IMG/VR virus record: IMGVR_UViG_3300009499_000013 | Location: 1-52,767 of that record | DNA from: a virus | Taxonomy: Duplodnaviria; Caudoviricetes | Length of the DNA stretch: 52,767 bases | Reading direction: 5' to 3' (one strand) | In this document: in pieces, positions 11,047-47,645 of the stretch | Layout: every line of letters begins with the position of its first letter | How positions within the stretch are numbered: position 1 is the first letter of the stretch | Position numbers and translations under genes: made by a program | Notes under the pieces: model-generated | Told to the model about the DNA's origin: nothing | Databases searched by the model: none | The model's input: the letters and a program-made list of their open reading frames with translations, nothing else

Positions 11047-14000
11047 CTAGCAACGACTCCACCCACACGAGCTACATGAAACACATCCTTCGCTATAGTG
11101 AAACTTTGTGCCACCACAGCTATCACACTTCTTGACGATGTCAGTCTCTGCACCATCAACGATGTAGCCCTTAAGAACACGTGATAGCACCTTAGCGAAT
11201 GAGAACATATCGCTATCACGGTCGCCCTTCTGCAATTGCTCAACCACCTGCTGTATCGGCGCTCCTTGGCGAAGAGCAAGCGATATCATCCGTGTCATCA
11301 CAGAGTGATTCGGATTATCAAACTGTTCAACGATGTCCTTGATTGTAATATCAGACCCATTGCATATGCGTAGGTCGTATGTCGCGGCCATCGTCTTTCT
11401 TTCGTTCTTGATGATTAGGCCTCTGTCATACTTCTTCGGTATCTCAACGAATCTTGATAAACCGCCGAATATCTCATATGGCTTTTCATCAATCATGCCA
11501 ACTAGTATCGTCCACGCCTCACCCTTGATGTTTGCATGATGAATCTCACATGGAAGCTCTTTCGGCCTTGTCGTCTTTGTCGTCGCTGCAACATCATTTG
11601 TTTTAGCGCTAACGAGAACACCAGCACGGCAACCATCTCGATACACAGTGAAACCCTTACAACCGGTCTTCCATGCACGCATATAGACCTGAGCGACGAC
11701 ATCACGCGTTGTGCTAGCGGGTAGGTTGCACGTCTTGCTGAGGCTATGTTCAATCCAGCGTTGAGCAACTGCTTGAACATCAACAGATGCAACCCAATCA
11801 ACGTCGTTCGACGTCGACATATGATACGGGCTGCTCTTAACATCAGTCAGGCCAGAAACATCTCGCCAATGCTTGAACCCAGGATGAAAAACATCGTACT
11901 CTTGCCACTTGTCGCCCATCGAATCTTCAAAATCAACACGGATACCGACATCATTCTGTGTGAGCTTACGACGACGCACATACTGCAACATGTATGCGGG
12001 TTCAATACCAGACGTCGTCCTAGTCATGAGAGACACAGAGCCAGCAGGAGCAGTCGTTGTGAGACAAATGTTGCGCCGGCCGTATTTCATGAATGCCGCT
12101 CGTGTCTCAGCGTCTGATGCATCTAACAGACGTGAAATGAATTGATGTTTGACCATTCTGCTGACATCACAGATGGGAAATGCACCACGCTCAACAGCTA
12201 GTTGCACAGAGCTCTTGTTGGCTGCGACAGCCAAAGAACGATACAGCTCCTCAATCATGAGGATGCTCTCCTTTGAACCGTATCTGATGTTTAGATATGC
12301 CAATGTATCACCGACACCCGTGAGGCCCAGGCCTGTTCTGCGACCCTTGACACATGCATCCCTAATCTTCTGCCATAGCGCTGTCTCGATTGCTTTGATA
12401 TCATCAGGTTCAGGGTCAGATTCAACCTTCTTGATTATCGCATCGATGTGCTCAATCTCAATGTCGATTAAGTCATCCATCAATCTCTGTGCCTTGACTG
12501 CATGCTCGTTGAACAGCTTCAAGTCGAATGTTGCATCTTCAGTGAATGCATTTCTCACATAAGAAAGAGCATTGACAACGAGCAATCTGCAACTATCATA
12601 AGGACTTAGAACAATTTCACCACAATTTTTTACACACAAACCAGACGCTTGAATGAACTTATCGTCTGGGCTTCCAGATGTAATAACATGATAGTTGTGA
12701 TTATCATCGACAGTAATATTGAACACATCCTCATAACCGAAAAATTCAACACTAACAACCTTGTGGTTATTGATAACCCTGTCTTTAAAAGCAGAAAATC
12801 GCTTGAAACGAAATTCATTAGCAACATGACAGGGTAAGCCATGTTGCTTAGCATAGTTTGTCCATATGCTAACTGTGAGTCGTCCATTTTCTGATAAGGC
12901 TTTTCTTCCGTGCTCTATCAATTCATCATTTGTGACGCCTAAATAACGCCCATTTTTCTCACCTGGATGACTAGCGAAGTTATGTTTTTGTTCAGCAGTC
13001 ATTCTGTGATATGGATTTGCGGCACCGCGCATGCAGTCAGCATGTAATGCTCTATGCTCTTCATGCGTCATTAACTGCAAATTACTGATATTATCATTGG
13101 TGCTATCAAAATCGATATGATGAATTGCGATGTTTTTGGCGTCAACATCTCCATGATAAAACTCATTGATTAATCGATATTGGCGACGATTTCGTTTAGC
13201 TCCTCCAGCCATATCAGCACCAGTATTTGCTACCTGTCGATACCCGTTTGAATTGAATGAATAAAACGGAAAAACACTCATGCCCGCCTTGAGCTTAGAC
13301 AGCTCAACATACTCTAGCGTCTTCAACATTACTTTATGGTCAGGAGTAGCTATCAATGAGCTTCCATCATCAAGAATCAACTTCCAAACCTCTTTCATTT
13401 CTCCAGTTTTTCTAGGATTTCGACCCATTTTTATTTCAACTCGACCCGTCGTAGGATTTGTAGAATAAACGGGAACATCCTGCCCAACATCAGCTAAACT
13501 TTTAATTGAAACAGCATTTCTACCGTCAGCAACAGCTATGAGTGTCTCACCGACGATGCAGGGATTCGTCGAAACAGAACCGAACCCTTCATCTGAAAAT
13601 ATGTCAGCCGGTGTTTCACGCTTGACAGTATCCCAGAACAGAACACCCGGTTCTGCTGCGCTCCATGCTGAGTCAATTATCTTATCCCATATCTGTCGTG
13701 CTTTAACGGTGCGTGTGTAAGTTGGTTCTATTGCGTCAACAGGCCATTGAAGTGTAAAATCGCTATCATCTTCAACGGCTTTCATAAATTCATCTGATAC
13801 ACGAAGAGAGATGTTTGCACCCGTGATTTTTGTTAAGTCTTTCTTGATGTCGATGAACGTCTCGACGTCAGGATGTCTGATGTCAAGAGTAAGCATCAGT
13901 GCGCCGCGGCGGCCACCCTGTGCAACCTCGCGACATGAGTTCGAAAATCTTTGCATGAAAACTGCTATGCCATCAGTTGTTCTAGACGCATTCGACGTGA

Positions 14001-14439
14001 TAAGACCAGCAGGCCTAATTGTTGAGATGTCGAAACCCACACCCCCGCGTCTCTTCATTATCTGAACCTGTTCTTGGTCAGTGTAAAGAATGCCGCCGTA
14101 TGAGTCATACGGCGACTTGATTACAAAACAATTCGACAGGCTTTGTATGCTATAGTCGTTTCCGATTCCAGACATCGGGCTACCCTGTGGAACGATGTAT
14201 CTAAAATCTCGGAGCAGTTCAAATATCTCATCCTCAGACATCGGGTTCGGATACTTCGCCTCAATCCTAGCAAACTCACGTGCCAAACGTCTGTGCATGT
14301 CATCGGGCGTCATCTCAAGTAGTTCATGATTTTCATCACGCAACGCATACTTTTTGATGAACACATCTGCGGCCATCTCATCACCGCCGAAGTACTCAAC
14401 TGATGCAGCTAATGCGTCTTTAAAGGAAACCATCGTCAT
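11047..14439 (-). CDS. nrdJ: class II (adenosylcobalamin-dependent) ribonucleotide reductase with intein
   Basis: SLSNCFV, RRGGVG, QGGRRGA, EPGVLF, NP[intein]CGE, RRTGLG, TTAPAGS, GIEP, SKTCNLP, KGFTVYRDG; C-terminal TSCPD-like domain and Zn ribbon. Confidence 0.93.
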   Translation of the reverse strand: MTMVSFKDALAASVEYFGGDEMAADVFIKKYALRDENHELLEMTPDDMHRRLAREFARIEAKYPNPMSEDEIFELLRDFRYIVPQGSPMSGIGNDYSIQSLSNCFVIKSPYDSYGGILYTDQEQVQIMKRRGGVGFDISTIRPAGLITSNASRTTDGIAVFMQRFSNSCREVAQGGRRGALMLTLDIRHPDVETFIDIKKDLTKITGANISLRVSDEFMKAVEDDSDFTLQWPVDAIEPTYTRTVKARQIWDKIIDSAWSAAEPGVLFWDTVKRETPADIFSDEGFGSVSTNPCIVGETLIAVADGRNAVSIKSLADVGQDVPVYSTNPTTGRVEIKMGRNPRKTGEMKEVWKLILDDGSSLIATPDHKVMLKTLEYVELSKLKAGMSVFPFYSFNSNGYRQVANTGADMAGGAKRNRRQYRLINEFYHGDVDAKNIAIHHIDFDSTNDNISNLQLMTHEEHRALHADCMRGAANPYHRMTAEQKHNFASHPGEKNGRYLGVTNDELIEHGRKALSENGRLTVSIWTNYAKQHGLPCHVANEFRFKRFSAFKDRVINNHKVVSVEFFGYEDVFNITVDDNHNYHVITSGSPDDKFIQASGLCVKNCGEIVLSPYDSCRLLVVNALSYVRNAFTEDATFDLKLFNEHAVKAQRLMDDLIDIEIEHIDAIIKKVESDPEPDDIKAIETALWQKIRDACVKGRRTGLGLTGVGDTLAYLNIRYGSKESILMIEELYRSLAVAANKSSVQLAVERGAFPICDVSRMVKHQFISRLLDASDAETRAAFMKYGRRNICLTTTAPAGSVSLMTRTTSGIEPAYMLQYVRRRKLTQNDVGIRVDFEDSMGDKWQEYDVFHPGFKHWRDVSGLTDVKSSPYHMSTSNDVDWVASVDVQAVAQRWIEHSLSKTCNLPASTTRDVVAQVYMRAWKTGCKGFTVYRDGCRAGVLVSAKTNDVAATTKTTRPKELPCEIHHANIKGEAWTILVGMIDEKPYEIFGGLSRFVEIPKKYDRGLIIKNERKTMAATYDLRICNGSDITIKDIVEQFDNPNHSVMTRMISLALRQGAPIQQVVEQLQKGDRDSDMFSFAKVLSRVLKGYIVDGAETDIVKKCDSCGGTKFHYSEGCVSCSSCGWSRC
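12625..13560 (-). mobile_element. 312-aa intein with HNH endonuclease in the RNR active site
   Basis: starts CIVGETLI after STNP; block B ATPDHKV; HHIDFDSTNDNISNLQL HNH motif; DVFNITVDDNHNY; ends VKN|CGEI. Confidence 0.92.
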
Positions 14440-15695
14440 TCATCCTCACCAGAGCTTGAACCATTGGCTACCTTGTTGATGCTTCTTAAAGACACCATCC
14501 TGTCTGCTGAGACCTGCTCCCATTTGTCTTTAAGGAGCTGTTTCATTCCTGTGTCTGCACTCATTTGGAAATCCTCTAAATCAACGTTCGCGTCAAGCAC
14601 TTCAATGATTGAGCGTGATGTGTCTATCTTACCAGGAAAAATGATGCCGTCCTTACCGAGTCTGCTTTTTGGAATGAAAATGTTGCAGAGACCCTTCGCC
14701 TTCTGTATCGGTTTCCTAGATAATGAGATGATGAAATCACAAATCATCGCCTTACCATAGCTTTCTGATATCTTGTCTAGGCCGACGACATCAGTGTCAG
14801 AACCATCGCGATTCACCTGACTCGCTGTCCAGATTGGAACATTGAGCTCCATTGCAAGTGTGCGCAGCTCTTCATAAACCAGCTTAAGCTCATGTCGAAG
14901 AGAATCAAACTGCCTAGATGACCTCATGATGTCAGCGTAGTCAATGATGATTACGTCAGGCCTAAATGACTTTGTGATTGCGAGCTTTTCGATGTGCGCC
15001 TTCAGCATCATGATTGTAGCCGTGCTGGTTGGATACTCCTTAATGATTAAACGACCCCAGTTAGACTTGTTCGATTCATAATGCGTTCTGATGAACTCTT
15101 TTTCATCAGGCACATCAGTCGCACTCACATTTGAGAGGTTTGAGTCATATCGGATACCGACCTTCTTCTCAGAAAGCTCGAACGTATAATGAAGAACATT
15201 TCGACCAGACTTCACAGCATTCGCTCCCAACTGAACGAGAAAATGTGAATTATGAGAAAGAATGTCATTCGTGTAAAAGCAATGAGTATCAGCAACTTGT
15301 AAATCAAATAGGGACTCATTTTCAATAACTGTCTCATTCGATTCAACAACAACTGCCGTATAGCCACCCCTAACAACTATTAAATCACCTTTAATAACAT
15401 TTTGTGCATACTTCCATCCGACAGTTGTTAAAACATTATGTTTAAATGCACACTCAAGCGACATTGCACCAAGCATTTCATGCATAACAGTAAGTCGCCA
15501 TATTGGAAGATGCTCTGTTTTTCTGAAACCCTCAACTTGCTTAAAACAATCATTTTTCGTAGAAGCATCATACGATAAAATTTGTATATCGAAATTTGCT
15601 GACACTTCAATGTTTTCACCAGAAATCTTAAGCTCATCAAAGAGCGCACTCAAACTAACATCACGTTCAACAATATTACGGCTGATTGATAGCAT
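14436..15695 (-). CDS. replicative helicase C-terminal half, fused to C-intein
   Basis: likely ATG at 15695 with GAGG RBS; after ILSHN come SHFLVQ, HYTFELSE, IIDYADIM, WTASQVNR, KSRLG (DnaB/gp41 motifs). Confidence 0.9.
   Translation of the reverse strand: MLSISRNIVERDVSLSALFDELKISGENIEVSANFDIQILSYDASTKNDCFKQVEGFRKTEHLPIWRLTVMHEMLGAMSLECAFKHNVLTTVGWKYAQNVIKGDLIVVRGGYTAVVVESNETVIENESLFDLQVADTHCFYTNDILSHNSHFLVQLGANAVKSGRNVLHYTFELSEKKVGIRYDSNLSNVSATDVPDEKEFIRTHYESNKSNWGRLIIKEYPTSTATIMMLKAHIEKLAITKSFRPDVIIIDYADIMRSSRQFDSLRHELKLVYEELRTLAMELNVPIWTASQVNRDGSDTDVVGLDKISESYGKAMICDFIISLSRKPIQKAKGLCNIFIPKSRLGKDGIIFPGKIDTSRSIIEVLDANVDLEDFQMSADTGMKQLLKDKWEQVSADRMVSLRSINKVANGSSSGEDE
15249..15695 (-). mobile_element. 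split intein C-fragment (149 aa)
   Basis: block B-like CAFKHNVLTTVGWK, block F LFDLQVADTHCFYTN, terminal SHN|S. Confidence 0.9.
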
Positions 15696-16824
15696 TTTTA
15701 ACCTCAAAAATAACTTCTGACCGACGATAACACCAATCTTTACCACGCACAACGATAACGTTATAGCCAGCATCAGTTAATGCTTTTAGTTTTAAGTTGT
15801 CATGTTCCCACATCTGTTTAGCGGTTAATTTTGTGCGTGGATGAACCCATGTAGGAGAAAATGCGTCTGCATGTGGATGCCAAAATTCTCCCATATATTC
15901 GACGATAACACGTTTAACGGGAAAAACAATATCACAGTTATATGTTAAAACTCTTATATTTGTTTCAATAAGCTCATCACAAAATTGTTCTTTTAAAACG
16001 TTTTGAAGCTCAATTTCACCAGATGAACGATTATAAAATGCTTTAGGCATATTTGCAGCAATCTGTTCTTTAACGTCAGCTGTGTGATGTTTCCCAAACA
16101 TCGGATGCTTTTCATTCGTGCGTCCGTAACATGGCGTTAGTTTAACTGCTTCATCAATAGAAATACCAGCTCTTGTTGCAATTGATACTAATGACATCGG
16201 ATTTTTATCACCCAACATCGCTTCAGAGCGTGCATTAAGAGTTTCAGGTTTATTGTTTTGACAAAGACTAGCTTTAATTTGAAACTCTTTAACACACTCT
16301 TTTGCTTCGTCAAATGAAAACCCTTTTCTTACCCAATGTTTTATTTCTGACGGAAACGAGCGCCAATCAAGAAAGGCAGCTCGTACAGTCGGGTCTTTAA
16401 ATTTTTCTTTAGCATTTTTTGAAGCTTTTTCTCTATCTTCTGTTGCTGTTCTTTGAATAATGCAGTTAGGATATTTTAGCTTATACTCTTTGCCTGTAAT
16501 GTTATGTCTTCTATTAATGTGAGACACAATAGATGAAGCAGTCTCAAATCCACAAATTTTACATACGATTTTATCAGTCCAACAGCGATTTTCTTTAGCT
16601 TCTTTTGCAGCAATGTTTTTTCTATAAACAGAATTATAGTCTCGTCTGTCATCACTCATCTTTTGCTTAACAGCATCAGAAAATCGAAATACAACTTTCG
16701 CTGGATATAAAAGTTTATACTCAGCAATCGTTATGTTGTGTCGCTTAATGATATGTGTTATTAAATTGCTGTCTGCTTCAAATCCACAGATAGCACATGA
16801 TAACGTATCAGACCAGCTCATCAT
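15676..16824 (-). CDS. free-standing homing endonuclease (C2H2 fingers, NUMOD3-like motif, Vsr/EDxHD-like nuclease)
   Basis: CAICGF...THIIKRH and CKICGF...SHINRRH; HPMFGKHHT; SSGEIEL...CDIV...IVEYMGEFWH...DNLK; AT-rich. Confidence 0.85.
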   Translation of the reverse strand: MMSWSDTLSCAICGFEADSNLITHIIKRHNITIAEYKLLYPAKVVFRFSDAVKQKMSDDRRDYNSVYRKNIAAKEAKENRCWTDKIVCKICGFETASSIVSHINRRHNITGKEYKLKYPNCIIQRTATEDREKASKNAKEKFKDPTVRAAFLDWRSFPSEIKHWVRKGFSFDEAKECVKEFQIKASLCQNNKPETLNARSEAMLGDKNPMSLVSIATRAGISIDEAVKLTPCYGRTNEKHPMFGKHHTADVKEQIAANMPKAFYNRSSGEIELQNVLKEQFCDELIETNIRVLTYNCDIVFPVKRVIVEYMGEFWHPHADAFSPTWVHPRTKLTAKQMWEHDNLKLKALTDAGYNVIVVRGKDWCYRRSEVIFEVKNAINQP

Positions 16825-17608
16825 CTTCTCGAATATCACTCACAATGATATTTCCTCGTTTTGTCATAACAAACTGCCAAGGATAATATGCTTTTCCATT
16901 AATCAAAACTTGTTCATGTTTAATATGAACAATTGAATTACCACGAGCGCATTTGCCGACGCCAGTGCCGGCCAAGATGCAACCCAGTTCTCCACCACCC
17001 AAGCCACCATTCATCACATCACGTGTGTCAAGATGTGCTAGACCGGTTGCGACAGTCGTTCTGTTCTCTTTAACGAAGCGTGCCTCTGCGTCCTCAAAAA
17101 AATCGTGGCCAGCAGTGTTGGGTGTGCCGACAGTGATTGCTGACTTGATTCGACCGACAATCTCTTCATAACGCTCATTCTTCGTCAAATCGACTGCTTC
17201 TTCAAGAGCATGCTTAAGCGCTTGGTTCTTACAAAAATTTAAAGACCTATCCTTCACCCACGGGAGGTCATTGATGTTTGGATTGCTCTTAAGCCCACCA
17301 AGGAATGAAACGACCTGAGCACACATCACCTCATCGTTTCCCTCACTGAGCTGGTCGCGTGCCATCGTGGCAAGAAGCGTGATTGAAGGAAACGTTTTAT
17401 ACGTCTGATAATGTCTCTGATAGATGTCAAACAGGTATCGAAGGTGTGCAACCTCGAAATACTCAAGCTTAAGAACCTCCATCATCTGCTGCGACCAGGC
17501 ATGGTCTGACAAGAGCGCCTGAATCACTCGTTCTTGGAAAGGACGACCGAACGACTTAAAAGAAACATCACCTTCATCAGCTGACATCAATGACCTCGAA
17601 AAAAACAA
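16808..17608 (-). CDS. replicative helicase N-terminal half, fused to N-intein
   Basis: TGLAHLD...GGLGGGELGCILAGTGVGK (Walker A, cut before the Ser) then CARGNSIV...; start may be the ATG at 17587. Confidence 0.9.
   Translation of the reverse strand: MFFSRSLMSADEGDVSFKSFGRPFQERVIQALLSDHAWSQQMMEVLKLEYFEVAHLRYLFDIYQRHYQTYKTFPSITLLATMARDQLSEGNDEVMCAQVVSFLGGLKSNPNINDLPWVKDRSLNFCKNQALKHALEEAVDLTKNERYEEIVGRIKSAITVGTPNTAGHDFFEDAEARFVKENRTTVATGLAHLDTRDVMNGGLGGGELGCILAGTGVGKCARGNSIVHIKHEQVLINGKAYYPWQFVMTKRGNIIVSDIREDDELV
16811..16951 (-). mobile_element. split intein N-fragment (47 aa)
   Basis: GK|CARGNSIVHIK block A at the classic P-loop insertion site; stop codon follows. Confidence 0.85.
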
Positions 17609-18865: not shown

Positions 18866-19014
18866 GATAACACCCTATCTGTGTCTGTGAATGTTTGAAG
18901 TCCATGAGCCGCAGCTATATCATTTGAGCGTTTGATATCATCAACAAGCCTCTTCTTATAGTCAAATAGATGCTTTTTACGCTCATCAGCGGTCATCCGT
19001 GATAAAATTTTATA
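18862..19014 (-). pseudogene. orphaned 3' part of the gene starting at 20017, separated by inversion
   Basis: YKILSRMTADERKK...DRVLS* is in frame with TAT at 20302-20304 once 19012-20304 is reversed; ATGA overlap with 18865. Confidence 0.65.
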
Positions 19015-19223
19015 ATCTAGATAAGAGACTCTACGACGACTTTATAAAGAACCTCGGGCACAGCCTCTGGTATGACGTTAGTACTAACATCGGCAACAAT
19101 CTTGCGATTAGTCTTAGGGACAGCTTCTGGGTGCATCGAGATCAGAGCATCATGGATGATATTAGTGACAATCTCCGAAACGTCAGAAACATTCATGATT
19201 CTGAAGTGACCAACAATGCGTGA
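18999..19223 (+). CDS. small paralog-array protein (original start lost at inversion junction)
   Basis: YNLDKRLYDDF...GHSLW...RDSFW; ends NNA* overlapping the next ATG. Confidence 0.6.
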   Translation: MIKFYNLDKRLYDDFIKNLGHSLWYDVSTNIGNNLAISLRDSFWVHRDQSIMDDISDNLRNVRNIHDSEVTNNA

Positions 19224-19421
19224 CTTGAACGAGAAACTCGAGAACAGCTCTGGGACAGTCTTGAGCACAGCCTCATGGACAGCCTCAGGGACAGCCTTGG
19301 GAATAGCCTCGGATTCAGTCTTGGGTGCAACCTCAGTGACAGCCTCAAGAACAGTCTTGGAAACAACCTTACACAAACCACACAGAACGAACAGAGCGTT
19401 GAGGAGACCAACGATGCGTGA
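19216..19421 (+). pseudogene. paralog-array unit with 1-nt deletion near 19248
   Basis: the alternative frame gives WDSLEHSLMDSLRDSLGNSL...QNEQSVEETNDA*, matching the next unit. Confidence 0.7.
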
Positions 19422-19580
19422 CTTGAACAAGAAATTCGGGAACTGTCTCAGGGACAACCTCTGGGTCAGCATCGCAAACAACCTCGGAAACAGTCTCAGG
19501 GACAGCCTCTGGAACAACAACCTCTGGGACAACAGCTTCGGGCACAGCCTCGGGCACAGCCTCGAGCACAGCCTCGAGCA
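19240..19580 (+). repeat. degenerate 12-bp tandem repeat (ACAGCCTCNNGN)
   Basis: many cagcctc/cagtct copies with 12-nt period. Confidence 0.8.
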
Positions 19581-19626
19581 AACCGCACAGAACGAACAGA
19601 GCGTCAAAGAGACGAACGATGCGTGA
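19414..19626 (+). CDS. paralog-array protein with xxSL tetrapeptide repeats
   Basis: MRDLNKKF...GNSLRDSLW...GHSLGHSLEHSLEQ; GAGGAG RBS. Confidence 0.75.
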   Translation: MRDLNKKFGNCLRDNLWVSIANNLGNSLRDSLWNNNLWDNSFGHSLGHSLEHSLEQTAQNEQSVKETNDA

Positions 19627-19828
19627 CGTGAACAAGAAATTTGAGAAAGTTTTTAGAGATGAAGTTTCACATAACATTTGGCCCGATGTTAAAAACACAC
19701 TCATTAATGCGTTTTTTATTGAGCTTACTTTTGGTCGCAGCGAACACAGTAATCTTGGCATCTGTGATGGTCTCATTGAATGTTTAAGCGACAATCATAA
19801 AAAAGATGATGGAATGTCAAATGCATGA
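19619..19828 (+). CDS. paralog-array protein
   Basis: MRDVNKKF start; ATGCGTGA overlap. Confidence 0.7.
   Translation: MRDVNKKFEKVFRDEVSHNIWPDVKNTLINAFFIELTFGRSEHSNLGICDGLIECLSDNHKKDDGMSNA
19770..19826 (+). repeat. 57-bp repeat, inverted copy at 20303-20359
   Basis: 56/57 identical; both copies encode LIECLSDNHKKDDGMSNA. Confidence 0.95.
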
Positions 19829-20024
19829 CGTGAATGATAAATTTGAGATTGAATTAATTGAAGCCACTAGTAGTTTTGTAAATGTGAATTTGTTCGAACG
19901 CAACAGTTTTAAACACATCTACATCTATAGTAATTTTGAACATTTTTATAAACTTGGTTTAGACATAGAAATCAACAAAAAAATTAACAAGATAGCGAAA
20001 AGAGATGAGAACACAGATGAGTGA
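19821..20024 (+). CDS. paralog-array protein
   Basis: MHDVNDKFEIEL resembles MRDKNDEFEISL; ATGCATGA overlap. Confidence 0.7.
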   Translation: MHDVNDKFEIELIEATSSFVNVNLFERNSFKHIYIYSNFEHFYKLGLDIEINKKINKIAKRDENTDE

Positions 20025-20334
20025 TTTTGAAATTGTTCAAGCAATCGACAGTCTCACGACAGAAATAAAAGCATTGCGAGATGCAATCGAGGCATCTGAA
20101 AAGGAAAGACTAGCGAAGCAAATGAAAAGTAAAGAGCGTTCTGGTCGATATAGTTCTGCAGTTGATGCCGGCTATCTTGGCGAGCTTTTGATTGAGATGA
20201 TGATATCAACTTTTTTGCGTGAAAAAGAAATTGATGTTTTTTTGTCTAAACCATTCTATGTCAGATGGTTTGATGATAGCGACTACAAATATTACTCAAG
20301 CTATGCATTTGACATTCCATCATCTTTTTTATGA
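20017..20334 (+). CDS. hypothetical protein, truncated/chimeric at inversion junction 20304
   Basis: MSDFEIVQ...; last 10 aa read from the antisense strand of the repeat. Confidence 0.65.
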   Translation: MSDFEIVQAIDSLTTEIKALRDAIEASEKERLAKQMKSKERSGRYSSAVDAGYLGELLIEMMISTFLREKEIDVFLSKPFYVRWFDDSDYKYYSSYAFDIPSSFL

Positions 20335-20508
20335 TTGTCACTTAAACATTCAATGAGACAATTACAAAGAATATCGCTAGTGATGTCGCTGAGGTAGTAC
20401 CTAATCTTGAATATAAGACTGCTGTTGAGGTTGTAATTACTGATGACTTCATCAAGTCCATTACCGATTGATGAAGTTGTTATGTAGTCTCTCATTCAAG
20501 TTACGCAT
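20301..20508 (-). pseudogene. paralog-array unit with frameshift
   Basis: family start MRNLNERLHNNFINR* stops early; the body GNGLDEV...MSNA* is in another frame. Confidence 0.6.
20303..20359 (-). repeat. 57-bp repeat, second copy
   Basis: reverse complement of 19770-19826 with one mismatch. Confidence 0.95.
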
Positions 20509-20716
20509 CGTTTGACCATTCGTTGCTTCGAGTACGAATATTTGTTTGTACATCTGACACAAGGTTACTCCAAAGACTGCTTCGAAGCATAAAATTTATG
20601 TTTGATTGATTGACGTCATGACCGATATCATCGATATTACCGTGCATCTTTTCACGCATGCAACGCCACAAATCATGATGAAGGTCGTCAATGAATCTTT
20701 GATACATGTCAATCAT
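20501..20716 (-). CDS. paralog-array protein
   Basis: MIDMYQRFIDDL...RSSLWSNL...SNDA*; 8-nt overlaps at both ends. Confidence 0.7.
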   Translation of the reverse strand: MIDMYQRFIDDLHHDLWRCMREKMHGNIDDIGHDVNQSNINFMLRSSLWSNLVSDVQTNIRTRSNEWSNDA

Positions 20717-20882
20717 CAGACTTCTCATCACTCTTGGAGTTCATTAGCTCAAGACTATGAACAAGCTCGTGTTGAAAATTATGGACAAAACGTAAGACAT
20801 CCCTATATCCAAGTAAATTTATAAAATCAGCTCTAAAGTTTGGAATCAAGCTAATTTCAAATTCATCATTCTTGTCACGCAT
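20709..20882 (-). CDS. paralog-array protein
   Basis: MRDKNDEFEISL; ATGCGTGA overlap with the HTH gene. Confidence 0.7.
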   Translation of the reverse strand: MRDKNDEFEISLIPNFRADFINLLGYRDVLRFVHNFQHELVHSLELMNSKSDEKSDD

Positions 20883-21195
20883 CACTGAAAATCTCAGAGC
20901 TAGACACAGCATCATCCTGTGGGATGGGTTGAAACTCAATATCACTCAATTGAGATTCGGCCGCCCAGGCAAGAGAAGCAACCTCACGCAACGTAATGTC
21001 GTCGTCACCATCAAGAATGTCGTTAATTCTATTCAATGAAATTCCCGTTCGAAGAGAAACGTCTGCACGGTTGATGCCCTTTTCCTGATAGAGCCCATAC
21101 AGCTCCTCCTTGACTGCCAGTATCAGCTTCTCTTCAAGAAGAAGTCTCTTCTGCGTTGGTGTCTTAAAGAGTTCGTTAAAGAGTTCGTCTTTCAT
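20875..21195 (-). CDS. XRE-family helix-turn-helix regulator
   Basis: EKGINRADVSLRTGISLNRINDILDGDDDITLREVA; GGAG RBS before ATG 21195. Confidence 0.8.
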   Translation of the reverse strand: MKDELFNELFKTPTQKRLLLEEKLILAVKEELYGLYQEKGINRADVSLRTGISLNRINDILDGDDDITLREVASLAWAAESQLSDIEFQPIPQDDAVSSSEIFSDA

Positions 21196-21196
21196 A

Positions 21197-21742
21197 TCAT
21201 CTCCCAGTTGAGCCGAAGCCCTTGTTCCCGCGTTTCGTTTGTTTGACCTCATCGACAAGCTCAAACTCGATGCTCGGAGCGATGAGACTGACGTAGAAAA
21301 CCATCTGTGCGATGCGGTCTCCAACGTTGATTGTGTAATCGTTACCTGACATATTGGCCAGTGTGATTCGCAGCTCTCCACGGTATGTGGGGTCAATCAC
21401 GCCACCAACTGGAAAGATACCCTTGATACCCAATGACGAACGCCCCTCAATCTTTGGCCACACCGTCAGGTTCTCAATGAACATGACATCGCCAGCGACG
21501 TACTGTGAGCCCTGCCCAGGATGGTCGCACTCATTTTCTCGCGGAAGAAACACTGTGTCTTCATGAGAATGAAGCCTGATATGGGGTTGATAATGAGCGA
21601 TGTATAGACCCGTATCAACGGGCAAAATTCTACCCGTGGGTATCATCACTTCCTCTGTTGAGTATAGGTCGAAGCCGATATCATCCTTAGATTGTGAAGG
21701 AAGACGAGCCTTTGAAGATGAAAGCTTCAGCTGAATCTGCAT
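21197..21742 (-). CDS. dut: trimeric dUTPase
   Basis: GFDLYS, GRSSLG, GVIDPTYRGE, GDRIAQ, RGNKGFGSTG. Confidence 0.95.
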   Translation of the reverse strand: MQIQLKLSSSKARLPSQSKDDIGFDLYSTEEVMIPTGRILPVDTGLYIAHYQPHIRLHSHEDTVFLPRENECDHPGQGSQYVAGDVMFIENLTVWPKIEGRSSLGIKGIFPVGGVIDPTYRGELRITLANMSGNDYTINVGDRIAQMVFYVSLIAPSIEFELVDEVKQTKRGNKGFGSTGR

Positions 21743-21774
21743 AAGACATGGTATCACACGTCATATTACAGATA

Positions 21775-22311
21775 TCAATGCTGAACATTCGATGTAATGG
21801 GACCGTCACACATGATTGTCAGCGACACACGACATGGCTTGTCGTCGCTGTAGTCAAGCGTCGTCATAAAGACATCCTTGACCCAAGCATCGTGCATGTG
21901 CCACACTCGAATGTCATGGCCCATTGCATCTAGCAACCTGATTGTGAACATGAACCTGCGACCCTGCGCGAGTGTGCTACCCTGACACAGGTTATCGACA
22001 AGCGTGCTCATATCATGACAATCTGCAAGAGTGATATAAAGCGGCTCATACGTTCTATTACCACTCTTGTCTATATGAAAGCACGGTTGTGTCACTTTTA
22101 TGACAAGATACGGTGCAATTTCAGGAATTTCGACGATGAAGCGATTAGAGGTAATCGACGCTACATGTTCATCAACTGACTGTTCTGTTGATTGTTCGAC
22201 GACATCTGGGCGAGCAACAGCACGCATTCGCTTCATATCCCTGAAGCCCTCTAAAGCTAGAACAAAAAAAAGCGCCAATAAAAATCCCATAATACCCGAC
22301 ACAATCATCAT
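21775..22311 (-). CDS. tail-tube (gp19-like) paralog with N-terminal transmembrane helix
   Basis: aligns by eye with 47157-47645 (NRFIV/FRWIL, YEPLYITLAD/WQPMAIELYD, LLDAMG/MLDPVG, WVKDV/WPKDI, LDYS/LSYD); hydrophobic residues 3-20. Confidence 0.7.
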   Translation of the reverse strand: MMIVSGIMGFLLALFFVLALEGFRDMKRMRAVARPDVVEQSTEQSVDEHVASITSNRFIVEIPEIAPYLVIKVTQPCFHIDKSGNRTYEPLYITLADCHDMSTLVDNLCQGSTLAQGRRFMFTIRLLDAMGHDIRVWHMHDAWVKDVFMTTLDYSDDKPCRVSLTIMCDGPITSNVQH

Positions 22312-23537
22312 GACTCTGGGTCTCCCATATCAGCATCCAAACCATCAGCGATGCTTTGCATCTCAACCAATGATTCTGCATCGACGTCGATGTCTGCAGA
22401 ATCATTCATCTTTCTCATCATCCTCAGCTCAATTAGCTTATCAAGATACGGCTTAAATTTCTCATCATCGAGCACTTCATCGAATGCATTCTTATTGAAC
22501 TTCTTCTCATGTATGAGCTTTCCCGTTGCATCCTTGACGCTGAATGTCTTCCACGCACCTGTGCCCTCGACCTCAACATCAAACTCTTTTCCATTGAGCT
22601 CGATTCGACCAGGGCCGAATGGCCTGAGAAAATCAAACAGCTCTTCATGCTCTTTGAGCCCGACGCCGAAATGGATTTGAAAATCACACTTACGAAATGG
22701 CGGAGACACCTTGTTCTTAATCGTCTTCGCATTAACGTTGATGCCTATCACTTCTCCTGCCTTATTCTCAATATGAGACCCAGCCCCGAGCTTTATTCGA
22801 ACAGATGCATGGAATGGAATCGCCTTACCTCCTGGAGGAACCTGTGGGTCTCCATACATCTGCCCGATGCTCGTCCGCGTCTGGTTCAGGGCAAGGAACG
22901 TTATGCGATTTGCACCCACGATGCTAGTGATTTTTCTGAATCCCTTTGAAAGAGCGCGTGCCTGAAGACCGATGCTATCCTTATCATAATCCCCTTCGAG
23001 CTCAGCCTTTGGAGATGTGGCAGCAACGCTATCCCAGATGATTGTCACTGGAACGTCTTTCTTAAGAGCACGTGTCTTAAGAATGATGCCCTCTGCAATC
23101 TCAAACACGCGTTCAGTGCAGACTGCATCACAATAAATAAGATTCTTACCGATATTGACACCAAGAAGCTGGAGGTTCTCTACACTTGTGCTTGACTCAG
23201 AATCAATCAATACAACAATTCCACCCATTTTTTGAGTGCTTTTAGCAATTTGTGCAGCGATATGACTTTTTCCAATACTTGGAGGACCGAAAATCTCAAT
23301 CAATCGACCCTCTGGAAGACCACCTCCGGGCCTGTTGGCGATGATATAATCAAGTTGTCTAGACCCAGTTGAAATCCAACGATGAACCTTCGTCGGTGCA
23401 TCATCCTTGAGGAGATTGTACGCAATCTTTTCACCACCGCCATGTTCAGAGTTAAGACTCTTGATGAGACTGTCGGTAAATCCTTTCAGCCCATCTTCAA
23501 TAGGAGTATCAACGATAACACTGTCTTTCTTTTTCAT
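22308..23537 (-). CDS. recA: RecA/UvsX-like recombinase
   Basis: ISTGS, GGLPEGRLIEIFGPPSIGKS, IWDSVAA, GLQAR, NQTR, GGKAIPFHASVR, KNKVSPPF. Confidence 0.95.
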   Translation of the reverse strand: MKKKDSVIVDTPIEDGLKGFTDSLIKSLNSEHGGGEKIAYNLLKDDAPTKVHRWISTGSRQLDYIIANRPGGGLPEGRLIEIFGPPSIGKSHIAAQIAKSTQKMGGIVVLIDSESSTSVENLQLLGVNIGKNLIYCDAVCTERVFEIAEGIILKTRALKKDVPVTIIWDSVAATSPKAELEGDYDKDSIGLQARALSKGFRKITSIVGANRITFLALNQTRTSIGQMYGDPQVPPGGKAIPFHASVRIKLGAGSHIENKAGEVIGINVNAKTIKNKVSPPFRKCDFQIHFGVGLKEHEELFDFLRPFGPGRIELNGKEFDVEVEGTGAWKTFSVKDATGKLIHEKKFNKNAFDEVLDDEKFKPYLDKLIELRMMRKMNDSADIDVDAESLVEMQSIADGLDADMGDPES

Positions 23538-23597: not shown

Positions 23598-24830
23598 TTA
23601 AATCGTCGTCGTTGCAGTTTTAATCTTCATCACGCCGTATAGTCCAACCTCTAAACTAATTCGACTAGCAACACCAACACCCAGACCAGCGACATCTTGA
23701 ATCCAAGACCTATTGCCAATATCATTAATGAGGCGCCATCTAAGCACACCATTTGATAGAACTGTTGAGCCTGACTGTGGCGGGCTTAAGGCCAAGACTG
23801 TCCCAGGGGGCCCATGATTGCCGGCAACAAGCTCCGGCGCGTATACATCTCCTGGAGCAGGAACACCAGAAACGCGAAGACCACTTAAACGTTGGCCCTC
23901 TATTCTAAGACCCTCACCCTCCCACCCAGCTATGCCTCCGCACACGACAGTCTGCGGCGACATCATGCTTTTTAGCTGGTCTGATTCAGCATAACAGCCG
24001 ACAAAGACAGAGCGTGCGCTAACACCCGTGACAGCGTAGCCACGATACACTACACCGCTCTTATCTTTCGTTGTAGCAGTCTGGGCACCTATGAATGTGT
24101 TTCCCAAAAATGAACCATCAATGATTGCAGCAGGCTCTCCAAGAGCTTGGCGCCAAAACTCGCCCCTCGTGCAACAGCCCCCGACATCAAGAGCAGTAAA
24201 CACATTTACATTTGCGTCTGGGCCCTTAATCCACACTGCAGCATGCTCTGTTGTTTGAATCTGTGTGTTATAGACGCGCGCTCCATTTACGTTGCTTGGA
24301 ACTGCATCCTTCACATTTCCAAAAATCTTTATGCCGTTAACGAACCCTCTGATGTAGATGTTCTCGATGATTGCTCGACCGTTCAACAATATTGCGCTAC
24401 GCTCAACGTTTGATTTAAGCGTCGTAACGATTGCCATGTCTGATATCTGTGAACACTGTGCCTTGAGTGGCACGACGAATCCGTTCGTTTGTGATTTGAC
24501 ACGCAGCAATGTTGCAGCTGATGCTGAGCCACCACCCGCTCCCTTGATTACCATGCAGCTTGGTAGAATAACCTCATCATGAAGCTCAAATTCACCGGGA
24601 GGAATTGTGATTACACCCGCAGCAACTCCCATCTGTGGTCTAAATGGTGATAACAACGTGATTGCATCAAAGACACGCTTAAATGCTGGTGCTAAATCAC
24701 ACGCTGTTGCAGTGCAATCTTCTTGTTGAACGAAATCGGTGATATCATAGACCTGACGTTTCCCTGGAATGTTCAACACGCTTATATCTCGATGAAGACA
24801 TGACCACATGCGACACAAACGCTGGCACAT
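23598..24830 (-). CDS. pectate-lyase-like beta-helix protein (start uncertain)
   Basis: YDITDF...DLAPAFKRVFD...GVITIPPGEF...IKGAG N-terminal pattern. Confidence 0.65.
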   Translation of the reverse strand: MCQRLCRMWSCLHRDISVLNIPGKRQVYDITDFVQQEDCTATACDLAPAFKRVFDAITLLSPFRPQMGVAAGVITIPPGEFELHDEVILPSCMVIKGAGGGSASAATLLRVKSQTNGFVVPLKAQCSQISDMAIVTTLKSNVERSAILLNGRAIIENIYIRGFVNGIKIFGNVKDAVPSNVNGARVYNTQIQTTEHAAVWIKGPDANVNVFTALDVGGCCTRGEFWRQALGEPAAIIDGSFLGNTFIGAQTATTKDKSGVVYRGYAVTGVSARSVFVGCYAESDQLKSMMSPQTVVCGGIAGWEGEGLRIEGQRLSGLRVSGVPAPGDVYAPELVAGNHGPPGTVLALSPPQSGSTVLSNGVLRWRLINDIGNRSWIQDVAGLGVGVASRISLEVGLYGVMKIKTATTTI

Positions 24831-35204: not shown

Positions 35205-38200
35205 TTATCCGATGATATCATCGCTCTTAAATAATCTCTCAACAGCATCAGCGTTTTTCTTATGAATCTCTCGTGCAGTCTTCGTATCACCGTATGGGTC
35301 TGATGCAACCTCATTAACGATGTGTCCAACGTTATAAACGGGTGCCCTGTTAAAGCCGTCAGCGTCGATGCCAGGAGCAATATCATGTATCGGCTGAAAT
35401 GTCATTTTAACGATGCAGTGCTGCGGTGCCTTTGAACCGAGGTTGATTTCCCATGATGGTGTTTTCCAATCGAATGAAACGTTAGTAATCACGCCCGCAA
35501 GGCCTCGGCCTCGTGTTGACTCAAATGAACGAACTATGACGTTGTTGTCAGCTGAAAAGAAGCTCTCCACAGCACGTTGTTCGGCCGTTGGTGAGTCTGT
35601 CAGACCAAGCTTATCAAGCGCTCTTGAAAGTATAAATTCTTCGTCGGGCATCAAATCATTGTGCTCAACGATGTATGGACCGGCATAAACGCCCTCAGGT
35701 GGGCTATCAAACACGACAGTGTATATCTCAACCTGAATCTTTGTGCTTGGATTCGTGCTTTTACCGCGGCTGTTGATTGTGCAAACGAGCGGCTCATTCG
35801 TATTTTGAATCTTCTTTTTATTTGAGAATCCAAGTATAGGAAGAGGCGCAGCACGCTTTTCATTGACCTTCAGCGCAGCCTTATCACCCTCATGGTAACC
35901 GTCGTCTTCTGGCTTAGCAGAACCGACTGGGTCTGTCATCATTTTATCACGAATCTTCTTTGCTTCTGCATTGATTTTTTCTGCTCGCTCAGCAGCCATC
36001 GTTCCAGCAGTTCCATCAAGCTTAAAGTCCTCTGTTCCGATGCCGAACAAACGCGCAAGACCGAACTTAGAGTAGTTCGAACGATAGAGGTCTCCAAGCC
36101 GAAGCCTTATGACAGGTGATGATGTCATGACCTGAGAAAACGGTTGTATGAATGCGTCCTGTCCGGCCTCAACTTTTCGCCCTCTAGACCACTGTGGGTA
36201 GAGCATTGTGATGAGCTTATTAATCTTCCACCACATGACATCGAAATCTGCATGACTTGTTGCAATGACATGGAAGCTTAGATTAATCGATCTGTCTGTG
36301 CCCGTGTAGCCCAACACTGGGTCGACACGACCGAAGTATGTGTCTTTAACATAGTTTGCGTTGAATGATTCATCAATCGCTGACAAGAATGCGTGGAATG
36401 AAACGATTTCATTCGTTCGTAGGTCATGAAAATAAAATGGTACGTATTCACTTTCTAGATGGTCTTCAATCCTTTTAACGTCATCACCCTTTATTCGACC
36501 CGTTGCATTAATAACGCTAGTGTCAATAGAGACGCCCTGTTCTGAGATTATTCGTGCGTCTGCTATGTTTCCAACACCCTCAAGCGTTGATTTATCCTGT
36601 GTGAATGATGATGCAGCACCCGTCGCAGATGGAGGAAGCAGATACAACGATGGTGTTGATGATGTTCTCCATGATAGACCAGGTACCATCGATTTTGCTC
36701 TGCTCTTTCTAACGTGAGTTATCGCGTTATCTGCTAGTCTGTCGATGTATGATATTCTGCCGTCAGGCGTTCCCTCGGCTGGGTCGCCAAGCGCGCCAAG
36801 AGCGCCTGTCGACAAAAAGCCATTATCCTCAAGATAAAGAACGGTATCGCCCAAGCCCGCTAACATGTTTATAAATCCAATCAATGTCGACGTTTTGATG
36901 ACATCTATCAGGCCAGATAGCGCCTGAAGAGCAGTTATCGGATTCGTCAGGTTGCTGAATATGTCTCCAAACGCTTTAACGACCTCACCACCAGAACGAA
37001 TGATTGCTCTTACTAACACAGCGTAATATCCGGGTGATTTAATGACGCGTACGTAATCACCGAATGAGTCAAGTTGAAAGAAGACGTCGATTCCCCTGTT
37101 AACTGACGTCAGATAATCGTGTCTCACTTCATGAATGCCGAGGTCCTGCAGTGAAATGAGACCACCAGCCATCTGCGTCTTACCGCGTGATGCACCAAGA
37201 GGATGAATGGCAGTCGTGCTTGGAAGCCCAGTCGCATTGATGTTGACGCCGACCAAACCGTTTAGGCCCAACAGAAACCCTTCTATCAAAAGCTTAACGA
37301 CGAGAACAAGTGCAACACCCAACGCAATCATCGTGATGGGTGCAAAACCATCGAACTGCGCAATGTATGAGTTAAGGTTTCCGTATGAATTGCGTCCATT
37401 GTCTAGGATTAATTCACTATCTAGATGCGGTTTTTGGTCAAACCCGGGAGGGATTCCCTGAATCGACGTTAGATTTTTTGCTAGCATCGACCTCGGGTCG
37501 ACGACCTGCGACGCCAAAAGCTGTGCATATCCGGGTAAAAGGCCTCCTGCCTCTGTCGCAATTCTATCTGGATTTCCGAGTGGGCTTCCGTCCTTCGTGA
37601 TGATGCCTGTCGCTCTAAGCATTAATGCCAGACCGACCTTCTTCATCTCTTCATATGTGATGCCTGTAGTGCCATCGACAGAGACGTTATCATATCCACC
37701 GAGGTTCGTCTGTAGCTTGCCCATTGGGCGCTTGTCGATTGTCGTAGCAGATGGTGAGACAGCATACGGTGTGTTCCCTGGATTAGGGTTGAATCTATTT
37801 CGCTTCAATACCTCAGATATCTTCTTCTGTATCTCAGGAGCATCTGGTGGCGTAGCAATCTCAGCATGATGATTACCGACGTTTGCTGACTGCCCACCTG
37901 ACTTCTGAAGCTTACCCTGTGGATTGCCAACTATATGACGTAAGACCTCATGGAATCCAGTCTTTGGGTCCCTTAGCTTCGTGAGTGTTTCATCATCGAA
38001 CGTCGCACCTATGACGCCCAGCGCTTCAAGCAGCGCAGCAGATGCAAAAACTCCATCAGATGGAGTGATAAACTGTGCAGGAGAGCCGTCAGTGTCCTTA
38101 AGAGACAGCGTCGCCTGTAGCTCTGACACTGGGTAGCTGTTCTGTGCCTGTCCCTCTGACGTCAATGACCTGATGTATGAGGCCATCGATTCAAGCGTGA

Positions 38201-38363
38201 TTGGGGCCTTGCCTGCGCTGTCAAGAACTTTTACTGCGGGACCCGCTGTCGATACACTCTTCGGTATGTCGTCGCCCTGCTTAAGCAGCGTGTTACCGTG
38301 GCTGTCATTACCGGTGCCCTCAACAATCATCGCTCTTTTTTTATCGCGTTCGTCAGTCATCAT
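35205..38363 (-). CDS. large baseplate / tail-tube initiator-like protein
   Basis: PFYFHDLRTNEIVSFHAF...FGRVDPV..YTGTDRSINLSF, PVIRLRLGDL, WEI...P tube-fold motifs. Confidence 0.65.
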   Translation of the reverse strand: MMTDERDKKRAMIVEGTGNDSHGNTLLKQGDDIPKSVSTAGPAVKVLDSAGKAPITLESMASYIRSLTSEGQAQNSYPVSELQATLSLKDTDGSPAQFITPSDGVFASAALLEALGVIGATFDDETLTKLRDPKTGFHEVLRHIVGNPQGKLQKSGGQSANVGNHHAEIATPPDAPEIQKKISEVLKRNRFNPNPGNTPYAVSPSATTIDKRPMGKLQTNLGGYDNVSVDGTTGITYEEMKKVGLALMLRATGIITKDGSPLGNPDRIATEAGGLLPGYAQLLASQVVDPRSMLAKNLTSIQGIPPGFDQKPHLDSELILDNGRNSYGNLNSYIAQFDGFAPITMIALGVALVLVVKLLIEGFLLGLNGLVGVNINATGLPSTTAIHPLGASRGKTQMAGGLISLQDLGIHEVRHDYLTSVNRGIDVFFQLDSFGDYVRVIKSPGYYAVLVRAIIRSGGEVVKAFGDIFSNLTNPITALQALSGLIDVIKTSTLIGFINMLAGLGDTVLYLEDNGFLSTGALGALGDPAEGTPDGRISYIDRLADNAITHVRKSRAKSMVPGLSWRTSSTPSLYLLPPSATGAASSFTQDKSTLEGVGNIADARIISEQGVSIDTSVINATGRIKGDDVKRIEDHLESEYVPFYFHDLRTNEIVSFHAFLSAIDESFNANYVKDTYFGRVDPVLGYTGTDRSINLSFHVIATSHADFDVMWWKINKLITMLYPQWSRGRKVEAGQDAFIQPFSQVMTSSPVIRLRLGDLYRSNYSKFGLARLFGIGTEDFKLDGTAGTMAAERAEKINAEAKKIRDKMMTDPVGSAKPEDDGYHEGDKAALKVNEKRAAPLPILGFSNKKKIQNTNEPLVCTINSRGKSTNPSTKIQVEIYTVVFDSPPEGVYAGPYIVEHNDLMPDEEFILSRALDKLGLTDSPTAEQRAVESFFSADNNVIVRSFESTRGRGLAGVITNVSFDWKTPSWEINLGSKAPQHCIVKMTFQPIHDIAPGIDADGFNRAPVYNVGHIVNEVASDPYGDTKTAREIHKKNADAVERLFKSDDIIG

Positions 38364-38593
38364 CGCCTCTTGAGCGTTGCTTCAAACTTTGCTCTAGTCT
38401 CAGGGTCATTCAGCGTTTTCACAAAAGCATCGAGACCCTTTGCTACCTCAGCAGTGAATGTCATGACTGTCGTTTCAATCTGCTTTCTAGCGAATTCGTC
38501 ATGCGTTCCACTCAATATCTGCTGATATCGCTCATCTGTCGCAAGATGTTGCAACACGTAGTCATTGATGCTTGTGTATTTTTCATCACTCAT
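38360..38593 (-). CDS. hypothetical protein
   Basis: ATGA overlaps on both sides. Confidence 0.7.
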   Translation of the reverse strand: MSDEKYTSINDYVLQHLATDERYQQILSGTHDEFARKQIETTVMTFTAEVAKGLDAFVKTLNDPETRAKFEATLKRR

Positions 38594-47156: not shown

Positions 47157-47645
47157 TCAGTACTGTAAGCACGCGTTATCGAATCTCACTAACATAGTGA
47201 TTGTAGCAGCATCATTATTGTCGTAAGACAGTTCGTTATAGTTGATGTCTTTCGGCCAACAACCTTTGATCTCCCAAAGCTCTATAGCCGTACCGACTGG
47301 GTCCAGCATCAAAAGTTGAATGTCTCTCTTGTAGAAGTCAGCGTAGCCAGCTCTACCAGAGATGCTCTCAAAGTTCAAACGAATCCACTCTTCAACCTGC
47401 TGTGCCCCCGACGGCGCGATTGGGTCATAGAGCTCAATCGCCATCGGTTGCCAGTCATGCTTACCAGCGAGGTAGCGCTTGCTGTTAATCCAATCGACTG
47501 CAATCTCTTCAAAGACGCGTTGTGGGCGCGCAGTGCTCTTTGCGAGGAAGGCATCGATACCCTCAACACGTAATATCCATCTAAACTTTCTTTTGGGTTC
47601 GAAGGCGTTCGGTATCATGTCGCTGACATCAAGTGTTTCAGCCAT
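47157..47645 (-). CDS. tail tube protein (T4 gp19-like)
   Basis: FEPKRKFRW, GKHDWQPM.IELYDPI, LDPVG...WEIKGCWP, LSYD; AGGAG RBS. Confidence 0.9.
   Translation of the reverse strand: MAETLDVSDMIPNAFEPKRKFRWILRVEGIDAFLAKSTARPQRVFEEIAVDWINSKRYLAGKHDWQPMAIELYDPIAPSGAQQVEEWIRLNFESISGRAGYADFYKRDIQLLMLDPVGTAIELWEIKGCWPKDINYNELSYDNNDAATITMLVRFDNACLQY

Follow-up and report, generated by a model that had tools for sequence, protein, structure and literature searches.

Phage tails, tailocins, injection systems and type VI secretion share tail tube proteins as building blocks. The largest contact between neighbouring rings is attributed to the loop joining strands β2 and β3, and deleting it is reported to prevent T5 tubes from forming and SPP1 tubes from growing, and to give hexameric rings in YSD1 (PMC8718954). 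In myoviruses an N-terminal loop (N-loop) and the α-loop are described as touching the sheath and the β2-β3 loop (PMC8718954). At the T4 tube's distal end the ring (gp48)6 is reported to hold the transmembrane helices of the tape-measure protein at the membrane while the genome is delivered, the C-terminal loops of the tape measure being bound to the tube end, and the T4 membrane protein Imm is described as acting in superinfection exclusion via tape-measure binding (bioRxiv 10.64898/2026.03.06.709160). The window analysed here is the whole of an IMG/VR virus record (IMGVR_UViG_3300009499_000013; 52,767 bases, completeness rating 15%), and the gene in question is an open reading frame (ORF) at 21775-22311, next to recA. 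Structural models and sequence profiles show its product, the target protein, as a predicted single-pass membrane protein with a minimal tail-tube fold as its globular part. The fold itself is known; the architecture, with its membrane anchor, and the genomic behaviour of the gene are new, and no description of a membrane-anchored tube-fold protein was found in the full-text literature, judged from titles and the openings of abstracts.

The target is a real gene under purifying selection. Among 5.8 billion clusters it has three homologue clusters, the closest of which holds five members on contigs up to 182 kb. Twelve studies, with the labels wastewater, groundwater, subsurface, marine and activated sludge, have runs with near-identical DNA, and the window itself may originate from one of them. 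Contigs of four runs show ten variant sites within the ORF; six are synonymous, and the four non-synonymous ones (M8L, M121I, N175S and H178Y) are conservative or C-terminal. The ATG (22311-22309) overlaps the stop codon of the co-oriented recA by 4 nt (ATGA), and the tube gene of the same phage lies 24.8 kb away, in agreement with the initial annotation, which had described a gene coupled to recA about 25 kb from the tube gene. Residues 1-7, 9 and 10 are invariant across all three homologue clusters, and position 8 is M or L; in the rest of the helix the residues change and the hydrophobicity is kept. The window copy does contain two methionines, M26 and M29, that would serve as internal starts if the ORF were an artefact, with no functional gene or with the true start past the hydrophobic segment. 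Because no internal methionine is conserved in the homologues, the start is placed upstream of the helix. The conservation of residues 1-10 in clusters down to 52% identity, the ribosome-binding site ahead of M1, the synonymous majority among the natural variants and the occurrence of the gene in so many studies leave the artefact a negligible chance, and the hydrophobic segment belongs to the protein as first annotated. One metatranscriptomic library (X7) has a contig across the target, which is not proof of transcription, and scans for promoters and terminators stayed at chance level (12 against 10.4 expected and 5 against 4.6 expected). One weak promoter-like site within the 3' end of recA (22444-22417) was unused as evidence.

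The domain behind the anchor is related to tail tubes by sequence and by predicted structure. BLASTP aligns 45 aa of the target with the phage's own tube (47157-47645) at 24% identity (E 5e-6). When the profile of the target clade is aligned with a profile of tubes only, hhalign gives 98.2% (E 3.5e-14) and matches target residues 54-172 to tube residues 19-159, which bears out the colinear similarity to this tube claimed in the initial annotation. Against PF06841 the target and its homologue P0003 score 18.2 and 21.5 bits, both below the cut-off of 28.2, and homologue P0002 scores 28.6, above it; phrog_4542 ("tail tube protein") matches the target at 2.2e-7. A profile search of 1.84 billion representatives returned 18 hits at E <= 1e-3, namely a single close homologue, 16 tube-like proteins of 123-222 aa (P0005-P0020) and a 1015-aa repeat protein, which was set aside as spurious. 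Pfam, PHROG, PADLOC and NCBIfam gave neither a second domain nor any other family match in the target: PADLOC returned nothing, and NCBIfam TIGR02241 alone, far below its cut-off.

Folded with AlphaFold2 (AF2) from a 33-row alignment, residues 50-178 give a domain model with a predicted local distance difference test score (pLDDT) of 93.0 and a predicted template modelling score of 0.84. In VIA-align this model is closest to the tube of the AlgoCIS contractile injection system (CIS; 7adz_1a, Z 14.7, root-mean-square deviation (rmsd) 1.9 Å, 125 of 129 residues), followed by the Anabaena CIS tube (Z 14.5), T4 gp19 (5w5f_A, Z 13.2), another T4 chain (9mkb_AC, Z 12.8), and lambda gpV and the Hcp proteins (10-11). 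The contractile tubes as a group (T4 gp19 of PF06841, Afp1, Pvc1, AlgoCIS and Anabaena CIS) share the β-sandwich-plus-helix with the target over 123-125 of 129 residues (Z 13.2-14.7, rmsd 1.9-2.4 Å), together with a weak but consistent sequence relation. Foldseek adds 63 matches in PDB and 124 in BFVD at E <= 0.001. Since the folding alignment includes true tubes, the predicted fold and the sequence relation are not independent; a partial independent check comes from the model of the ESM Atlas itself, which has a template modelling (TM) score of 0.67-0.70 to gp19 clusters. The gp19/Hcp fold, for which a Foldseek comparison had been suggested, is thus predicted, in models and not in solved structures. 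Tube-end proteins share this fold, as the T4 chain 9mkb_AC and the baseplate tube proteins among the Foldseek matches show, and the T4 distal ring is reported to contact transmembrane helices at the membrane (bioRxiv 10.64898/2026.03.06.709160). Both points would suit a virion component, in which a protein at the distal or proximal end of the tube would keep its hydrophobic N-terminus in the lumen and insert it into the host membrane on infection. The N-terminal region of myovirus tubes is described, however, as contacting the sheath side and not the lumen (PMC8718954).

What sets the domain apart from true tubes is the loss of its assembly loops. Loop lengths were counted as residues between invariant anchor positions. 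Between P76 and D97, the β2-β3 hairpin has 20 residues in all four clade members and 15-21 in 13 of the 14 other tube-like proteins, against 32-33 in 15 of 15 true tubes; between D97 and G131, the helix and α-loop take up 28-33 residues in the clade and 30-34 in 13 of those 14, against 43-58 in true tubes. The gap at the β2-β3 position also appears in the alignments, including that of hhalign, and the second deletion, of ~10-15 aa, falls after the helix in the α-loop. Where tubes carry an N-terminal segment with a conserved FEPK-type motif, the target has its anchor and linker. The initial annotation had reported a single deletion of about 14 aa in the hairpin that stacks the rings. The site was named correctly, and the missing segment is the β2-β3 loop, to which that role is ascribed (PMC8718954); the size is 12 aa, and the α-loop deletion comes in addition. 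Contractile tubes thus differ from the target in lacking an anchor, in having the longer β2-β3 loop and α-loop and the N-loop, and in being neither accessory nor encoded among replication genes.

In the target, models and alignments show the elements for ring stacking and sheath holding to be shortened (β2-β3 loop, α-loop) or replaced (N-loop). From the loss of the β2-β3 loop and its known role it is reasonable to infer that the target assembles at most into non-stacking rings. Its tube fold, conserved anchor and lost stacking loop all fit the non-polymerising, membrane-tethered ring first proposed for this gene, in which the ring itself is presumed. A complex prediction with four copies of the domain (score 0.62 against 0.52 for the control) is uninformative for or against rings.

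The N-terminal helix is likewise peculiar to the clade. The highest Kyte-Doolittle mean over 19 residues (KD19) of the target, 2.66, is the top value of the 43 window ORFs scanned. It is 2.59-2.92 in all four clade members, <=1.21 in all 16 other profile hits and <1.6 in all 116 listed tube-family proteins, so that none of these 132 other proteins has an N-terminal transmembrane helix. The helix noticed in the initial annotation is kept by all three homologue clusters. AF2 models residues 2-30 as one helix and gives low confidence to residues 25-55 (pLDDT <50), where the homologues differ in both length and sequence of the linker. The helix carries a small-xxx-small pattern (Table 1); such patterns often mediate helix packing. 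No charged residue stands ahead of it and R24 is invariant; lysines and arginines in the 16 residues past it number five in the target and in P0001, one in P0002 and two in P0003.

Table 1. Positions in the window of the target gene, its parts and the genes compared with it.
Feature	Position	Strand	Basis or remark
Target ORF, 178 aa + stop	21775..22311	-	Homologues at 96%, 52% and 53% identity
Transmembrane helix, residues 1-22, small-xxx-small pattern (S5, G9)	22246..22311	-	Kyte-Doolittle, AF2
Basic stretch, then variable, probably disordered linker, residues 23-54 (~30 aa)	22150..22245	-	Homologue variation, pLDDT
Minimal tail-tube (gp19/Hcp) fold domain, 124 aa, residues 55-178	21778..22149	-	AF2, VIA, Foldseek, hhalign
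Shortened β2-β3 hairpin, residues 77-90	22042..22083	-	12 aa shorter than true tubes
GGGAGA ribosome-binding site, 9 nt upstream of ATG, within recA end	22321..22326	-	Sequence
RecA/UvsX-like recombinase	22308..23537	-	Pfam RecA 1.7e-54; phrog_97
dUTPase, starts 17 nt past target stop	21197..21757	-	Pfam dUTPase 5e-25
True tail tube, 162 aa, comparator	47157..47645	-	phrog_4542 5.4e-32; PF06841 30.4 bits

The target lineage is, on the sequence phylogeny, old and divergent. In a maximum-likelihood tree of 33 proteins the target clade is monophyletic (Shimodaira-Hasegawa-like approximate likelihood ratio test 99) and sits on a long branch of its own, and the phage's own tube falls inside a tight group of 162-aa tubes, away from it. 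The target is therefore not a recent duplicate of that tube, and the term "paralog", if taken to mean a copy of this phage's tube, does not apply. The tree neither establishes nor rejects a single clade of the transmembrane proteins and the remaining short tube-like proteins (approximately unbiased test, p 0.38).

The distribution of the gene was followed with RecA as a handle, which gave 55 related IMG/VR loci at 36-68% identity. Flanks reaching up to 6 kb were searched with hidden Markov models (E <= 0.01), and none of the 55 loci showed a tube-like ORF there. The gene next to recA was classified in 47 of them from its N-terminal sequence, with 12 representatives checked in Pfam, eight loci with a partial RecA match (L060-L067) being excluded. 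It encodes a 5'-3' exonuclease in 31 loci, a dUTPase in nine and another product, endonuclease-like or unknown, in six; one locus ends at the contig edge. The dUTPase gene overlaps the recA stop in most of the nine. One such dUTPase (L045:1192-1755), overlapping the recA stop, has a 46-aa N-terminal extension made up of a hydrophobic stretch (Kyte-Doolittle value 1.77) followed by a basic one; the idea that the anchor is ancestral to this slot was dropped, as BLASTP found no similarity to the target helix and the DNA match is out of frame.

Searches of whole records agree with the survey of the flanks. Among nine relatives, eight have one tube match each, including a complete genome of 239,550 bp with terminal repeats, and a 40.8-kb fragment has none; a second match never occurs. 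In four of five cultured or assembled relatives the tube match is likewise single, and in Phosso there are two adjacent matches, in the tail module. The target is absent from Microcystis phage Mel-JY01, an immuto phage, RM378 and LR756508, tblastn and blastn gave no match to it in 50,697 phage records, and no relative turned up when sets of viral, metagenome (twice) and genome contigs were scanned with a pattern made from the clade alignment. Unlike a tail tube gene, the target lies outside the tail module and is not conserved in relatives. Because it is absent from the flanks of the 55 RecA loci and from the nine relatives' records, the target is, by sequence comparison, an accessory, lineage-specific insertion into the conserved recA-dut junction. 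An essential role in tail assembly is unlikely, since relatives build tails without the target; of the three roles named in the initial annotation (nucleation of tail assembly, superinfection exclusion and a decoy for host sensors), nucleation is the least likely.

This accessory distribution weighs against two readings. In the first, the target would be a membrane-tethered assembly platform or chaperone, its ring accepting tube subunits or the tape-measure end and nucleating or organising tail (hub or tube) assembly at the inner membrane. A ring without the loop could still receive the loops of a stacked ring, as may be extrapolated from the contacts described in PMC8718954, and the target occupies the same slot as T4 gene 40, directly after uvsX. 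Gene 40 adjoins uvsX, which it overlaps by 8 nt, and its annotation is that of a membrane-associated initiator of head vertex assembly; its product is reported to help start portal assembly at the membrane, and the action described is on the portal, not the tail (PMC9958956). There is, however, no homology between the two proteins: hhalign gives 0.3%, gp40 has no N-terminal transmembrane helix, and phrog_999 matches gp40 (1.3e-43) and not the target. As the complete related genome, the eight other related records and the named phages lack the gene, those records nevertheless coding for phages that build tails, and as it lies far from the tail genes and among replication genes, the platform is improbable. 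The second reading, the virion component introduced above, is disfavoured by the same distribution and by the location of the gene, and has a very slight probability. The T4 distal ring, with which it was compared, is as reported a tube-fold ring beside transmembrane helices at the inner membrane (bioRxiv 10.64898/2026.03.06.709160), and the target would unite both in one chain. T4 gp48, by contrast, is a larger virion protein without a transmembrane helix of its own, encoded in the baseplate module.

For the function we tentatively propose, ahead of the other readings, superinfection exclusion: held at the membrane, the target would imitate the tube end and so trap the tape-measure protein or tube tip as it comes in. 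The protein would be made at the time of the replication genes, earlier than the tails. With its tether in the inner membrane, it would form rings that cannot stack, and these would mimic the distal tube end, which normally holds the tape-measure protein at the membrane. When a related phage superinfects, the ring would capture its tape-measure protein or tube tip and block its genome delivery, in an action like that of T4 Imm (tape-measure binding) with a different fold. Consistent with this proposal are the rarity and accessory distribution of the target, as expected of exclusion genes, its location among replication genes with an overlap of recA, T4 imm and sp also being located among replication genes, and the hydrophobic segments of the window's tape-measure protein. 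Imm resembles the target in being a small membrane protein encoded in such a setting, and differs in being all-helical and multi-span, with no tube fold. The first transmembrane helix of T4 Imm (L005 8374-8622) does align with target residues 1-15, over just 15 hydrophobic residues with a shared VSG motif (hhalign 4.6%), and this is taken as a chance likeness between hydrophobic helices.

Several points weigh against exclusion. The positive-inside rule is established knowledge; by it, the tube domain would probably face the cytoplasm, because no charge precedes the helix and five lysines or arginines follow it, although the flanks of P0002 and P0003 are weak in this respect. This predicted orientation counts against an encounter in the periplasm, the simplest form of exclusion; the end of an incoming tape measure would need to get as far as the cytoplasmic face. 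By sequence the target is unrelated to T4 Imm (hhalign 4.6%) and Sp (1.0%), and PADLOC gave no match. Ring formation and exclusion are both presumed, and early expression is deduced solely from gene position. If this tentative proposal is right, the target could be the first exclusion (or anti-defence) protein derived from a tail tube, a minimal non-stacking ring fixed to the membrane as a mimic of the distal tube end.

The predicted cytoplasmic orientation would suit an anti-defence decoy, in which an early tube-like protein binds a host tube sensor without triggering it, and the missing loops and the tether keep the decoy out of the phage's own tails. Tube-sensing defence exists, DSR2 being reported as activated by a phage tail tube protein and as counteracted by another protein of phage origin (PMC10981675, PMC11087589). 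An accessory, lineage-specific gene among replication genes whose product retains the core fold and has lost the assembly loops is also what such a decoy would look like. Its weakness lies in the anchor, which a decoy does not need and which would reduce encounters with a soluble sensor. Moreover, PADLOC and the other searches gave no match to a known anti-defence protein, and the DSR2 inhibitor is not described as tube-like in the accounts cited (PMC10981675, PMC11087589). On balance the decoy is doubtful.

The exclusion proposal and the decoy both presuppose a connection with tails, and two sets of observations touch on whether there is one. First, C77, C109, C160 and C168, together with H79 and H99, are invariant in the clade and foreign to true tubes. 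C160 recurs in five short proteins; at the other three columns cysteine is rare or absent among the tube relatives, with C109 recurring in P0009 and P0019. The domain contains 4.0% cysteine, against 1.09% for the window ORFs. To judge from the sequence, the cysteines could be part of a metal site or of disulfides, and the latter would speak for a domain in the periplasm. Second, the short loops recur in P0005-P0020, of which 13 of 14 (leaving out the true tubes P0007 and P0015) have a short β2-β3 hairpin and 13 of 14 a short α-loop spacing, and which, unlike the target, have no hydrophobic N-terminus. These proteins come from uncultured phages and have N-terminal extensions of 9-95 aa, some of them lysine-rich and helical-looking. 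Single-protein scans of viral contigs with two of them gave no match, and tblastn with two proteins of the set matched cultured phages in the main tube alone, with no second gene. From these sequences, P0005-P0020 may be an unrecognised family of non-stacking tube-fold proteins.

Both sets would favour a function unrelated to tails, with the tube fold serving as a ring oligomerisation module on an anchor, for instance in a tether for replicating or recombining DNA, in lysis timing or as a membrane scaffold. The cysteines and histidines set the domain apart from true tubes, the varied extensions on 16 other tube-like proteins, 13 of them with both loops short, hint at a reusable core, and the target is translationally coupled to recA. 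On the other hand, the domain is acidic like DNA-conducting tubes and not basic, nothing in the way of a further domain or family match suggests a different activity, and relatives couple recA directly to dut or the 5'-3' exonuclease without the target. Such a function is rather unlikely, though worth keeping in mind.

An accessory, anchored, core-only tube protein in the replication module would show the tube fold reused for a non-structural job, and the target would offer a natural "ring-only" tube variant for studying the start and stop of tube polymerisation. Exclusion or counter-defence by tail-end mimicry, if true, would be a new mechanism in phage-phage and phage-host conflict. More widely, the tube proteins that are short, lack the loops and differ in their N-terminal modules may be a so far unrecognised family of non-structural rings.

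The source phage is a large myovirus, because related IMG/VR records reach 239.5 kb, and its closest cultured relative is Microcystis phage Mel-JY01 (tube 42.6% and RecA 37% identical). Nearly all long ORFs of the window are on the minus strand. A block of replication and nucleotide metabolism (1-31,400) encodes a Thg1-like protein, thymidylate synthase, ribonucleotide reductase, a DnaB-like helicase, an exonuclease, dUTPase, RecA/UvsX, a gp32-like single-stranded DNA-binding protein and a PolA fragment; a tail block (32,000-52,700) encodes the tape measure, baseplate hub, tube and sheath. Inulin fructotransferases are right-handed β-helix enzymes, and they are the sole, weak PDB sequence matches (best E 0.027) of a 410-aa ORF without Pfam or PHROG match (23598-24830, minus strand), located between the gene for the gp32-like protein and recA; it may be a tailspike- or depolymerase-like protein among the replication genes.

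The DnaB-like helicase appears to be in two parts (14436-17608, minus strand; N-terminal part 16808-17608, C-terminal part 14436-15773), and an ORF between them (15676-16839) has NUMOD3, zinc-finger and endonuclease matches, which suggests that the helicase gene was split by a homing-endonuclease insertion. Similarly, the large subunit of ribonucleotide reductase (11047-14439, minus strand, 1130 aa) has HNH-endonuclease matches at residues 338-480, between two reductase segments, in what looks like an intein or an inserted endonuclease domain. The pattern of long ORFs is broken on both strands at 18999-20950, a region of several small ORFs whose N-termini are alike (MRD-x-N-x-KF type) and whose ends are acidic; the region includes tandem repeats of 12 and 24 nt at 19267-19580. 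In the tail block, a 1052-aa ORF (35205-38363, minus strand) has a strong hydrophobic segment at residue 342 (Kyte-Doolittle value 2.54), and the tape-measure protein (38590-42303, minus strand) has hydrophobic segments at residues ~698-727, 763-781 and 917-943; both proteins are candidate membrane-inserting ejection proteins.

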